Both the position numbers and the translations under genes were made by a program. Source: Eledone cirrhosa (lineage: Eukaryota). Taken from it: 64,000 nucleotides of DNA. The notes below the pieces were generated by a model that did not search any database, was not told where the DNA came from, and saw only the letters and a program-made list of their open reading frames with translations. The stretch covers positions 27,838,001-27,902,000 of the forward strand of contig OZ024763.1 in assembly GCA_964016885.1 (NCBI GenBank), written 5' to 3'. Positions 16,503 through 59,682 of this stretch are shown here, one piece after another. Within the stretch, counting starts at the first letter, position 1. Each line of letters begins with the position of its first letter.

Positions 16503-16785
16503 ACGATATTAAATAAATGGAAACTATATTTATAAAACCATATTTATTTCGTTATATATATTTCTGGGATATCATATTAAAAATATGGTATGCCTTCCTC
16601 AGACAATACCATATTTTTTAATATGATATCCCAGAAATATATATAACGAAATAAATATGGTTTTATAAATATAGTTTCCATTTATTTAATATCGTAAACC
16701 TACTCCAGAAACTGTTGAGTGCTTTTATATCAGTTATAAAATATTTACTCGTTGTAACCCAACAATCTTAAATAAAACTTTTGCA
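16503..16785 (+). mobile_element. Palindromic hammerhead island in (TA)n (PLE pLTR-like)
   Basis: About 90-bp inverted arms at 16503-16591 and 16606-16695. Minus-strand HHR at 16550-16605 (tgt CTGAGGA..GAAA tatata TA acg). Tail ACTC..GAGTGC at 16702-16722. Related fragment at 44855-44950. Confidence 0.8.
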
Positions 16786-16895
16786 TATATATATATATAT
16801 ATATATATATATATATATATATATATATATATATATATAAATCAGGAAAGAAGAATGACACGGTTTGCTATACAAAAAAGGTTTTTAATCTCATT

Positions 16896-17001
16896 GCTGA
16901 CAATTGTTTCTCTGAACTGGTAGGTCTAGAGATCGCCACCCGCTTATTTCCACGTTATTCGATCACCAATACAATGTTATAACCAGTCAATTCATCGGAG
17001 C
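16896..17001 (-). ncRNA. Hammerhead motif with extended stem II
   Basis: Reverse complement: gct CCGATGA [~80 nt] GAAA caattg TC agc. Palindrome ACAATTGT, GUC triplet. Partial family copy at 20280-20400 (+). Confidence 0.7.
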
Positions 17002-17805
17002 TTGTGAGAATGAAAAGAATATACAGGCATGGCTACTATATATAGTAGTAATGGCATTCAATCAGAACAATAACAACAATACTAACAATGCTAGCAATAA
17101 ATTATTTGAAATAATCACAACATCGATCTAGGTGGGAAGTATAGTATATCTACGATTTTAACGTGTATATATATATATATATATATATATATATATATAT
17201 ATATATATATATATAATAATAATAATAAAAACAATAACATACATGTTCTTTAAAGGTGAAATTGGTAGGAAAGATGTTACCCCGTTAAGTTTAAAATTTG
17301 GCTGTCTACGTCTCTACGTCTACGAGTAGCTAGATGTCCACGAGAAAGAAACCGATATTCCCTTCTTTCGCATTTATATAGGAACAGTCCATTAAACAAA
17401 TATTTCTATATATATTCGTCGATTTATTTGAAGGGAGATCAGTGTATATATGTATTAAATAAATTAATGATTTCTCCTGTTAAGAAATGAATGTAGCTTT
17501 CGATCAAGGTTCGATTCTTATCGTATGTAGTGAAGTGATTTTGTTGAATCAATAACTGGTAGATAGTTGTCAAATAGTTCTTACTATATTGATAGGAAAT
17601 CAAGTGCCAAAACAACAAACAATTTTTTTTTTCTTTTTGTGGAAGAAGATAGTTCATACAGGATGTGTCTGTGTGTATATATATATATATATATATATAT
17701 ATATATATATATATATACATTGGACCCCCTTCTAAACTACGTATTTTATATATATATATAGTGACGAAACATAAGTCAATTGCATGAACTCATAATCCTT
17801 TATTT

Positions 17806-56000: not shown

Positions 56001-59000
56001 AACCCCAAGCTTTCCTCATCAACCACCTCAATGTGAGCAATTTCAACCATTCACATTTATGTACACATAAACACACATATATACACACAATTACACAAAT
56101 AGACTCAATAACATATATACACAGAACCACACATATATACACACATACAAACACATATATACACAGATACAAACACATATACACAAACACACATTTATAC
56201 AAACACACATTTGTACACACACAAACACATATATATACACACACACAAACACACATACAAACACATATTTATACACACAAACAAACAGATAAATACACAC
56301 AAACACACATATGTACACACAAACACACACATATACACACAAACACACATATATATATACACACACAAACACACATATATACACATACAAACCCACACTC
56401 AGAATATGTTTTTAAAATGTTTTAATATATATTTTGTCAATATATTCATTATTTTTTTCATTTCGTTTGTTTTTGTAATTTTTTTTTTCATTTTTCTTTT
56501 AGTTTTTTTTTCTTTAAAGTCAAGTGAATGATTTAAGGTGAGTGAGAGACCGAGTGATTCGAGTTGAGTAGGAGTTGAGTTGAGTGGAGTGGAGTGGAGC
56601 TGAGTTGAGTTAAGTTGAGTTAAGTTGAGTTTAGTGGAGTGAAAGAGGTGAATGTGAGAACTACTATTATCTGCTGTCGTCGCAGTATTATTATTATTAG
56701 TAGTAATAGCAATAGTATTGGTAATAGTGTTTGTTTTCAACCCTCACTCAGTAGAATATAACTGGTACATAGAAGTATTATTATTATTTTTTTTTTGTCC
56801 TCAGCAAAAAGAGGAAAGAATGAAAGGCAAAAAATATCGAGTACGCCATAACATTTAACAAATTCCACACAGACACGTGTATCTGTGTGTATATATATAT
56901 ATATATATATATATATATATATATATATTCATTTATATATATATATTTATATATATACATGGATATATATATATATATATCCATATACATGTATATACTT
57001 TTTAATATATACAAACACAGACACGATTTTTCTCCGACATTTTTTGTATTATACAAGTCGTTTTCTGTCAAACTTCGTCAAACACACATACACACATACA
57101 TACACACATGCACGCGCCCACACATACATACATTCGTACATACACGCACACGTTTCATAATTTTTTTTTTTCTTTGTACATCAATAGGGTTCACAAACAT
57201 GCATTGATCATGCATTGCTTAACATACAGTTTGCATGCACTTATGTGTATATATCCTGTATGTATTTATAATTATATATCTTTGTGTGTACATATATATA
57301 CGTATATATATATATATATATATATATATATATATATATATATATATATATATATTATATATATATATATATATTTGTTTATATTTTTTTAAAAAAGCAT
57401 ATTTTTTAAATCCACCATATATATATATATATATATATATATATATATATATATATATATATATGTATATGTGTATATATATATATATGAGGAGTTTTAA
57501 GCATAACGTTTCTGAAGGAAAAAAAAGGCAACATTCCCCCACCCCCATACCCCCATCTCCTTCAACAACAGGTATTAAAAAGAAATGACATATTTATACA
57601 CATACAAACACACACAGCATATATATATATATATATATATATATATATATATATATGGAAACATAATAGACAAGGTGTAGCAGACATATTGGCAACAACA
57701 ACAACAACAAAAAAAATAACAGCGGCAGCAGCAGCAGCAGCAGCGATAAAAAGAAAGAAAGAAAGAAAGAAAGAAAGAGAGAAAGAAAGCTAATATAATA
57801 ATAATAATTATTATATTAAATCGACCCCAGTGCGTTACTGATACTTTATTTTATCGACCATGTAAGGATGAAAGACAAAGCTATCCTTGGTGGGATTTGA
57901 ACTCAGAACGTAGTAAGAAGTAAGTAAAATACCGCAAAGAATTTTATCCCAGGCTCTGACGATTTTGCCGATTCACAATCCTTAAGATTTCTAATATTGA
58001 CAGGGGGCCAGTAATTTAAAGGGATTCCATAGTCAATTAAAAACGATATACCCTACCCGCCCTGCTGACATCACTAGTAGTTTGTTCTTCAAACCCTCAG
58101 AATGGTGAAAGAGGGTTAAGTTGTCTTTCACTCTGAATGCAAAGAACTGGAACGTAGATGAAAGTAGAGATAGTAAAAGAGTCGGTGACAAATATATATA
58201 TATATATATCATATATATATATCATATATATATATATTATATATATATATATATATTATATATATATATTATATATATATATTATATATATATATATCAT
58301 ATATATATATATCATATATATATATATATATATCATATATATATCATATATATATATATAATATATATAAATATATTATATATATATCATATATATAAAT
58401 ATATTATATATATATATAAATATATTATATATATATATATATATATATATATATATATACATCATATATATATATATATATACATCATATATATATATAT
58501 ATACATCATATATATACATATATATACATCATATATATATATATATATACATCATATATATACATCATATATATATACATCATATATATATATATATATA
58601 TATATATATATATATATATATCATATATATATATATCATATATATATATATATCATATATATATATATACATATATATCATATATATATATATATCATAT
58701 ATATATATATACATCATATATATATATATATATATACATCATATATATATATATATATATATATATATATATATACATCATATATATATATACATATACG
58801 TACATATAATAAATAGCACGTAGACGTACGGGAGAGCACCATTTGTTTGTGTTGTTTTGTTTTGTTTTAATTAAAGGAAATTAATTTAATCAGATGACAA
58901 ACTTATGATGATGATGATGATGATGATAATGAGGAAGGTGGTGATGAGGTTGATGATGAGGTGAGAGTGAGAGGGTGGGGAGAGTAAGTAGAATGAAACG

Positions 59001-59491
59001 TATTGAACAGGTACTTGAAAAGTTAATGGGTATAAATAAATATATATATACGTACATATATTTATATATATATATATATATATATATATATATATATATA
59101 TATATATATATATATATATATATATAGGCTTTACTTGGTATGTAGACAGACCGCAGAAATACGTATTATGTATAGTAATAATAATAAATTTGAAGACTAA
59201 AATCCAAAGAGGGCTCGATAAGGATAAATATATATATCAGATATATAAGAACCGTAGAGCAAATATTTATTAAAATAACAAATTAAAGTTTAGCGATTCT
59301 TTGCTTAAACTTTAATCTGTTATTTCACGGAGTGAAGTGCAGAGGCTTAAATTTAAAACAAAGACAAATATAAATAAAAGAGGGGGGGGGGGGGGCTAAT
59401 AGTTAGACGATTTGCATAGTATGTTATATGTAATATATATATTTATATATATATATATATATATATATATATATATATATATATATATATA

Positions 59492-59682
59492 CGTTATTCC
59501 GGGTTGAATCGGAGGTAACCACAGTAAGTAAGGTACTCAATACATAGCAGAGTAAAAAGTTTAAATATAGATGAGATTCTACAGGACTAGAACTGTTTCA
59601 TTCTTCAGAAATCATCAGATTCCTGATGATTTCTGAAGAATGAAACAGTTAGTCCTGTAGAATCTCATCTATATTTAAACTT
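59492..59682 (-). mobile_element. Palindromic hammerhead island
   Basis: Arms at about 59557-59618 and 59623-59682. Plus-strand HHR at 59618-59664: gattc CTGATGA tttc tgaa gaat GAAA cag ttagtc ctg TA gaatc. Minus-strand tail ACTC..GAGTAC at 59533-59553. Confidence 0.85.

Follow-up and report, generated by a model that had tools for sequence, protein, structure and literature searches.

We analyzed a 64,000-nt stretch of the Eledone cirrhosa genome, referred to as the window (assembly GCA_964016885.1, 3.0 Gb; contig OZ024763.1, positions 27,838,001 to 27,902,000, forward strand), in which islands of sequence are set among 370 (TA)n tracts. An earlier note, made from the DNA alone, had named 14 of these islands by their positions and had interpreted them as a diverse radiation of TA-targeting, hammerhead-bearing remnants of Penelope-like elements (PLEs) or non-autonomous RNAs. 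The islands are almost certainly pieces of PLEs, and we describe here their architecture, their link to coding elements and a duplicated hairpin that probably sets where their copying starts.

In all 14 named islands the inverted repeat scored above the best of 30 shuffles, and 12 of them are clear lopsided palindromes with arms of 42-274 nt (89-100% identity; about 40-270 bp in the note); at 27973 (31/38) and 33545 (36/42) the inverted repeats are weak. The one-sided tails span a wider range (37-166 nt) than the 50-100 bp claimed for them, and the tail of 19358 is interrupted by a repeat resembling a short interspersed nuclear element (SINE). The note had placed the islands in or next to (TA)n; island 27973 has no (TA)n at its end. 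A strict type I hammerhead descriptor gave 1 match in the window and was judged too narrow; the relaxed minimal descriptor used instead gave 8, compared to 0.3 ± 0.6 (maximum 2) in 200 shuffles, indicating enrichment. The full motif is present in 37161, 46017, 59492 and 40335 (the last a U3-A8 core variant), and an intact core with GAAA and UH in 16503, 38323 and 49383. The core is thus intact in 7 of the 14 islands rather than in most of them; it is mutated in 33190 and 27018, and none was found in 19150, 19358, 27973, 33545 and 47606. Additional hammerhead motifs or half-cores lie in islands that had not been named (20521-20565, 34991-35036, 62669-62743, 27694-27766, 45442-45514 and 37032-37098), implying that further PLE families may be present. 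A hairpin of the form RCTC…GAGYRC, hereafter H1, lies near the start of the tail in 10 of the 14 islands. Only 49383 and 59492 align with each other, as expected from the claim that the primary sequences are unrelated apart from one family; several families nevertheless appear to be distant members of one clade. No PLE open reading frame (ORF) was found in the window, consistent with the reported lack of a mobilising ORF.

A genome-wide search of seven island families found all of them repeated (first-look candidates: 1447 and 260; 879; 57; 2759; 1010; 402; 525). One further genomic locus of the 47606 stub was seen (L020). No second copy of 27973 occurred among the genomic loci retrieved, and no genome-wide search was made for it. 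The signature H1-tail-(TA)n occurs 11 times in the window, compared to 1.2 in shuffled sequence, and 19 times, compared to 1.5, in fifteen 10-kb stretches taken at round coordinates (150 kb). By this measure, the window is typical of the genome. Extrapolating from 19 motifs per 150 kb against 1.5 in shuffled sequence, we roughly estimate ~350,000 tail-bearing stubs in the genome (range, ~200,000-560,000).

In families A, B and C (islands are assigned to families in Table 1), both outer limits, that of the inverted arm and that of the tail, are constant, and the centre is variable. This combination is the published layout of PLEs, according to the sections of PMC8557442 consulted. Furthermore, Hydra-type PLE ORFs are reached in longer copies of five families: A, C, D, L and G2, the last a sister of family G (19150). 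The beginning of a homologous ORF lies past the tail in families A, D, D2, E, F, I, J, G2 and L. ORFs for reverse transcriptase (RT) with GIY-YIG, which the note had proposed to look for by extending the consensuses, were thus found outside the window. Full-length relatives encode an ~800-aa protein of the RT plus C-terminal GIY-YIG type. In family C, the long copies contain an open frame of 821 codons, many of them being 97-99% identical, with DIASYY, YRDD and then a C-terminal GIY-YIG-like core (IYEC...YFGST). RWTA and SDKT, as well as CNCRIKNKC (CxCx5C), CNLC (CxxC) and CLH (CxH), are present in 6/6 full-length copies, and no CCHH motif was seen by eye in the family C translation. Families D and D2 harbor RWRA and SDKT, and family L RWRA, the third residue differing from the K of RWK. 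A related ORF matches PF01541 at 6.4e-5. An asparagine-rich stretch was observed in the family C ORF between the RT thumb and the endonuclease (L142:2150-2480); it recalls the N-rich inserts described for rotifer Penelopes in the part of PMC3846280 consulted.

The Hydra clade consists of PLEs with a C-terminal endonuclease (EN+), including Hydra-1_Obim, Hydra-1_Ajap and Penelope-13_HM, and the table devoted to it lists (TA)n targeting and one octopus member (Craig et al. 2021, PMC8557442, sections consulted). In this clade RWK replaces GxKF/Y and DKT replaces DKG, CxCx5C lies in the linker, and CxxC and CxH belong to the endonuclease. Since RWTA, SDKT, YRDD, CxCx5C, the C-terminal GIY-YIG, CxxC and CxH match features of this clade, we assigned family C to it, and the ORF-linked families as a whole very probably belong there. 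Features shared with the published description are RW[K/R/T], DKT, CxCx5C, CxxC plus CxH, the absence of CCHH, a hammerhead in the pseudo-long terminal repeat (pLTR), (TA)n and a 5'-truncated inverted copy. Hammerheads are carried by families A, B, C, D and F, and the core is changed or absent in G, H and L. The features of Naiad and Chlamys (N-terminal endonuclease, no canonical hammerhead) do not apply, given the C-terminal endonuclease and the hammerheads of ORF-linked families. An initial assignment to the Neptune clade was dropped once the features had been compared with the Hydra-clade definition. The same sections describe a small set of families, generally <3 kb, and PLE tails of 30-40 bp, whereas we found at least 12 families, tails mostly of 60-100 nt, a 1.3-kb ORF-less family and, in family C, a unit of ~3.7 kb including a 1-kb 3' untranslated region; the latter exceeds the <3 kb length, which is given there as a tendency and not as a defining rule. 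Most islands appear to be 5'-truncated, head-to-head insertions of high-copy-number autonomous PLEs and not retrozymes. No read-through copies were seen for 27018, 33190, 38323, 40335, 47606, 33545 and 27973, of which only the first three carry H1. The tails of 33545 and 47606 (38 and 37 nt) have no H1, and that of 40335 (66 nt) has no canonical H1; these three islands may come from other PLE clades. Overall, the radiation proposed in the earlier note is borne out by the ORF-linked families A, C, D, L and G2 and by the ORF-less family B, with the reservations that the clade and its TA targeting had already been published, that 27973 is unconfirmed and that most islands are not retrozymes.

In copies that read through the usual end point of the tail, a second hairpin (H2) lies directly past this point and is followed by the ATG. 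The tail is therefore bracketed by two copies of one hairpin motif. A two-hairpin pattern derived from families B and C gave 246 matches, compared to 30 in a reversed control, and recovered family D, whose read-through copies run past H2 into a Hydra-type ORF. H2 was also found, unselected, in read-through copies of G2 (L248, with the ORF start) and L (L295, with a Hydra-type ORF), and in family A it is a compensatory GCAC/GTGC variant (one old copy). Two read-through candidates of family H turned out to be flanking DNA. We then examined 531 distinct matches to 12 family references, of which 62 read through, 53 end off a microsatellite and 416 end at one. Terminated ends thus lie at a TA or CA microsatellite in 416/469 cases (89%), compared to a background of 12.7%. 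These 416 ends fall before H1 in 169 cases (130 at 4-10 nt, mode 7), before H2 in 242 (216 at 4-10 nt) and elsewhere in 5, so that 346 of them are 4-10 nt upstream of one of the hairpins, with TA letters blurring the positions by a few bases. Non-inverted direct copies likewise end before H1. A scan of the window with Rfam gave only chance matches to hairpin or microRNA models below the gathering score (best 150 of 388), eight full-length loci gave none at the gathering score, and the twin-hairpin module corresponds to no curated Rfam family.

The module is also present in family B, a unit of 1.2-1.5 kb with a hammerhead and both hairpins (~1000 candidates; L044:1600-2900 and L322-L351), repeated at a spacing of 1237-1494 nt in 8/30 loci. 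All 30 read-through loci continue into the ORF-less unit, with a Hydra ORF found downstream in none of them, which argues that family B is non-autonomous. It resembles the non-LTR retrozymes (bioRxiv 10.64898/2026.07.22.740005, as far as consulted), which are non-coding tandem units with a type I hammerhead from PLE pLTRs. Unlike retrozymes, family B copies are for the most part dispersed and 5'-truncated, and they have inverted arms and a tail of the PLE type.

Besides the hairpins, the sequences that follow H1 and H2 pair with each other, forming a helix (P3) that encloses H2 just before the ATG. Across 11 families, the P3 duplex averaged -11.1 kcal/mol for partners of the same family, compared to -6.3 kcal/mol across families (0/100000 permutations). 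Four of nine P3 pairs change on both sides, as counted on 8 of the 11 aligned rows, since the MAFFT alignment is wrong for three families (A, G2 and B) in this region and at H2. P3 is therefore a covarying helix.

As an independent test, we scanned metagenome contigs with an alignment of 21 proteins and obtained 78 loci, of which 67 contained the ORF start and 62 of these at least 60 nt upstream of it, giving 50 distinct Hydra-type elements. Within 190 nt upstream of the ATG, at least one hairpin was present in 44/50 and two in 24/50, compared to 1.8 and 0.07 in shuffled sequence and to 3 and 0 on the reverse strand. In the 24 two-hairpin elements, H1 and H2 are spaced by 55-83 nt, and an upstream hammerhead core is present in 15; the distance from the end of H2 to the ATG is 13-40 nt. 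P3 was again stronger with the own partner (-11.4 versus -6.2 kcal/mol; 0/20000 permutations), which was the best one in 10/24. Alignments to a second copy were available in 19 cases; after setting aside two self-palindromes, five at or near a contig end and two read-throughs, the second copy stops 0-4 nt (uncorrected BLAST ends) ahead of H1 or H2 in the remaining 10. Inspected by eye, the published consensus ends also show the motif, as far as consulted, in Hydra-2_Amil, Hydra-1_Ajap (both hairpins), Hydra-2_Ajap, Hydra-1_Crog and Hydra-1_Obim; it was not seen at the end of the Hydra-1_Amil consensus, which stops shortly past the hammerhead.

To understand how the palindromes arise, we compared 79 inverted junctions from families A, B, C and K, after excluding 30 family A loci that came from a query containing the centre (these were also left out of the 5'-end counts below). 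One tail was present in 75 junctions, two tails in 3 and none in 1. In 19 of the 75, the tail-less arm exceeds the tailed one at the 5' end by >15 nt (up to 2.7 kb), and these can therefore not be fold-back copies of a tailed complementary DNA (cDNA); the tailed arm reaches further 5' in 13, and the arms are within 15 nt of each other in 43. An overlap of at least 2 nt was found at 35 of 57 insert-free junctions, compared to 15-19% expected by chance. A minority allele was common to both arms in 13/17 family A-type copies, indicating that the arms were made per insertion. The junction geometry favours two cDNAs primed from both target strands over fold-back. A fixed palindrome centre, as in a master hairpin element, had been considered for family A and was rejected: the query had contained the centre, and an unbiased search returned varied junctions. 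The 5' ends of the arms pile up within 8 nt in families A (39/67), K (26/51) and C (27/81), with TATAAA ~30 nt upstream of the pile-up in A and K, suggesting that RT may run off the template at the mRNA start. Relative to H1, these pile-ups lie at -72 in A, about -158 in K and -175 in C. Such run-off would explain the dominance of tiny stubs.

A related behavior is known from the Poseidon element PAc of Anolis, for which, in vitro, two internal RT starts bracket the tail and both target strands are cut and extended; its targets are AT rich, hammerhead cleavage is dispensable in vitro and a dimer is predicted (Frangieh et al. 2024, PMC11167929, main text). In PAc the starts are within the ORF at a stem-loop rich in AC, and the tail is 30-40 nt, whereas the hairpin described here is duplicated, located in the 5' leader and conserved across the clade. 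No conserved start signal is reported in that main text. Building on the architecture, the ORF link, the end positions, the conserved motifs and the covariation, we infer that the islands are head-to-head ends of Hydra-type PLEs inserted in (TA)n, whose H1 and H2 probably dock the RT and set two starts. The element protein, probably as a dimer, would bind an RNA module in the 5' leader consisting of the hammerhead, H1, P3 enclosing H2, and the AUG, and would cut both strands of the (TA)n tract. Each target 3' end would then prime a cDNA: synthesis from immediately 5' of H2 would yield the arm with its tail, and synthesis from immediately 5' of H1 the tail-less arm. Both cDNAs would proceed to the 5' end of the RNA, often running off at the transcription start 70-180 nt away, and would be joined through 2-6 nt of microhomology, resulting in a lopsided palindrome. 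On read-through tandem transcripts, starts at the next module downstream would account for longer and full-length copies, and family B, which carries the same module, would use the protein in trans. On a broader proposal our confidence is evenly divided: that Hydra-clade PLEs of several animal phyla share an undescribed structured RNA acting as a portable start signal for a dimeric RT, that the two hairpins account fully for the optional tail and the head-to-head pLTRs, that any RNA bearing the module, such as family B, can be inserted in (TA)n, and that run-off has left some hundreds of thousands of stubs in this genome.

A number of observations weigh against this reading. H1 is missing from 27973, 33545, 40335 and 47606, so that the conserved hairpin tail of the design described in the earlier note holds for 10 of the 14, and family K shows the same fixed ends without a canonical H1. 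Among 37 pattern matches, none was a read-through copy of family H. Seven of the 12 references (C2, D, D2, E, F, I and J) were chosen by a pattern demanding both hairpins, and the count of ends before H2 is inflated by the many loci that came from tail-containing queries. The 4-bp hairpin stems are nearly invariant and hence show little covariation, minimum free energy folding of single sequences frequently fails to show H1 or H2, the P3 helix is weak in families J, A, I and B (shuffle P of 0.06-0.16), and the families are related, so that the permutation tests overstate independence. Regarding run-off, the 5' hot spot of family C has no TATA box, nor has that of D2 (7/19), family B has no pile-up and the family K sample is biased by the query. 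Pfam detects neither RT nor GIY-YIG in the family C protein, the assignment of which rests on motifs. Finally, because the ends and the conserved motifs are correlated, docking and start setting are what we infer from this correlation.

Alternatively, the inverted arm could result from fold-back (self-priming) of a single cDNA or, as proposed for rotifer Penelopes, from an antisense template, H1 being a stop or cut signal. Self-priming has been proposed for PLEs (PMC3846280, in the part consulted), the centres often coincide with small natural palindromes (CAG-attc-CTG in family A), arms of one copy share alleles and the 43 near-equal junctions fit fold-back equally well. However, it accounts neither for the 19 junctions in which the tail-less arm is the longer one nor for the three with tails on both arms, and direct, non-inverted copies end before H1 too; we thus consider this explanation unlikely. 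A role of the twin motif as DNA, which it could have, is about as improbable in our view: it would be a signal at which the endonuclease trims a cDNA or genomic intermediate, or else a promoter or translation element that merely lies near the ends. Indeed, the hairpin sequence is conserved beyond the needs of pairing, H2 lies 13-40 nt ahead of the ATG, and the endonuclease of Drosophila virilis Penelope needs the tail for DNA recognition (as cited in the main text of PMC11167929). The covarying P3 and the compensatory stem variant of family A nevertheless point to a single-stranded structure, the ORF-less family B retains the entire module, and the ends match the in vitro RT starts of the Poseidon element (PMC11167929, main text).

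It is very improbable that the palindromes are assembly or sequencing artefacts or DNA transposons resembling miniature inverted-repeat transposable elements (MITEs). AT-rich repeats and palindromes are error prone, and no short-read contig spans the entire island at 37168-37578. Short-read contigs (from a single study with no more than 2 samples, which may be those of the assembly itself) do however cover all 30 bins of this island and show numerous different joints at the centre, as well as loose ends at 37326 and 37499. The stronger argument comes from regularities at the family level, which contradict an artefact: outer ends are fixed per family and centres differ among copies, arms contain mismatches, junctions show microhomology and long copies lead into RT ORFs. 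The fixed length and symmetric terminal inverted repeats of MITEs are not seen either, since the arms vary per copy and the tail is one-sided.

Head-to-head priming by H1 and H2 would explain the one-sided tail of PLEs. For the formation of the optional tail and the inverted pLTR, one in vitro study has given two starts and no rule; a motif present twice at an equal offset from both ends in dozens of unrelated Hydra-type elements provides a directly testable start rule. The twin hairpin is also a simple signature for annotating a class of repeats that resembles unique DNA between microsatellites, and a compact cis-acting signal that directs insertion to microsatellites could be of interest for retroelement engineering. 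Minimal hammerheads have been described from metazoan PLEs (Cervera and De la Pena 2014, PMC4209133, in the part consulted); they are type I with a palindromic loop 3, include a U3-A8 variant and occur as opposed pairs 100-700 bp apart, as here; unlike those, several families of the window keep the fold with a changed core (27018 and 33190) or only the 3' half. The twin-hairpin/P3 module is not mentioned in the Hydra-clade text consulted (PMC8557442), and our literature search, which covered openly accessible papers, found no description of the twin hairpin, P3 or twin priming in PLEs. The elements themselves add new families to a clade already described, and their layout is known as well.

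The islands are listed in Table 1 together with further stubs that we identified in the window. Relatives of the older stub at 33545 retain a minimal CTGAnGA..GAAA core.

Table 1. Islands and further stubs in the window (window positions)
Feature	Positions	Strand	Details
Two tail-only family G2 stubs, not named earlier	15995..16293	-	
Family D stub	16504..16784	+	Arms 16504-16591, 16606-16694; tail 90 nt; H1 16702-16722; hammerhead core on minus arm 16553-16602
Tail-less pLTR stub, family F	17753..17969	-	Hammerhead core 17813-17858
Family G stub	19147..19339	-	Arms 19288-19334, 19231-19277; tail 19147-19230; H1 19191-19216; no hammerhead core
Family L stub	19359..19535	+	Arms 19359-19400, 19418-19459; H1 19471-19518; tail cut by SINE-like tandem
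Family H stub	27018..27672	+	Arms 27018-27291, 27316-27578; hammerhead-like fold with mutated core in both arms; H1 27587-27613; tail ends in (AC)n, then (TA)n
Weak inverted repeat (31/38), membership unconfirmed	27974..28210	+	
Stub (33190)	33117..33533	-	Arms 33488-33533, 33283-33328; 166-nt tail 33117-33282; H1 33238-33274; hammerhead-like motif with one core change 33453-33491 (+)
Older stub (33545)	33544..33730	+	Arms 33545-33586, 33651-33692; 38-nt tail without H1
Family C stub	37165..37580	+	Arms 37165-37322, 37329-37486; hammerheads 37195-37265 (-), 37386-37456 (+); H1 37499-37525; tail to 37580
Stub (38323)	38325..38599	+	Arms 38325-38423, 38434-38532; hammerhead cores in both arms; H1 38538-38560; tail 67 nt
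Family K stub	40335..40674	-	Arms 40539-40674, 40401-40534; 66-nt tail 40335-40400 without canonical H1; U3-A8 hammerhead 40562-40599 (+)
Tail-less pLTR stub related to families D and D2	44845..44997	-	
Family B stub	46016..46409	+	Arms 46018-46108, 46244-46334; hammerhead 46210-46283; H1 46342-46379
Stub (47606)	47599..47753	+	Arms 47605-47648, 47673-47716; 37-nt tail; no H1, no hammerhead core
Non-inverted family A-like stub	48341..48463	+	H1 and tail
Second family K copy, non-inverted	49145..49356	+	U3-A8 hammerhead variant 49183-49220
Family A stub	49384..49568	+	Arms 49384-49440, 49444-49500; H1 49507-49527; hammerhead core on minus arm 49405-49443
Second family L stub	59172..59325	-	Short inverted arm and full tail
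Family A stub	59492..59681	-	Arms 59623-59681, 59558-59618; full hammerhead 59617-59665 (+); H1 59533-59553

In family H tails (27656-27672; L231-L260), a variable (AC)n nearly always precedes (TA)n, and the opposite end of the copy in the window joins (TA)n directly. This could reflect either targeting of compound microsatellites or, at the RT start, repeated copying of a short AC template in the manner of telomerase. The hammerhead-shaped folds of this family (27067-27146 and 27450-27529) have a long stem II, and the core reads CCGTCGA in most copies, so that this ribozyme is fixed and probably either inactive or a variant. Inverted repeats of 41 bp around (TA)n, at 40685-40877 and 40220-40292, flank and are nested with the family K insertion and possibly represent a small DNA transposon split by later insertions.

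The window also contains other repeats. A SINE-like family of very high abundance, whose copies are frequently arranged in tandem or bear a tandem 5' unit of 45 nt, occurs at 4500-4776, 11668-12216, 19536-20144, 25347-26410, 28211-28398, 31196-31583, 42013-42582 and 50340-51162, and we take it to resemble mollusc SINEs. Fragments at 18017-19121, 30617-31171, 48559-48685 and 52667-53033 are presumably 5' or 3' ends of an RTE-type long interspersed nuclear element. Open frames of 235 codons (21358-22065) and 136 codons (36154-36564) seem to us to resemble the C-terminal zinc-knuckle parts of non-LTR retrotransposon ORFs. Finally, a TA-flanked element of ~900 bp (32175-33082), which we presume to be mariner-like, has terminal inverted repeats of 89 bp (97%) and a decayed transposase-like frame.

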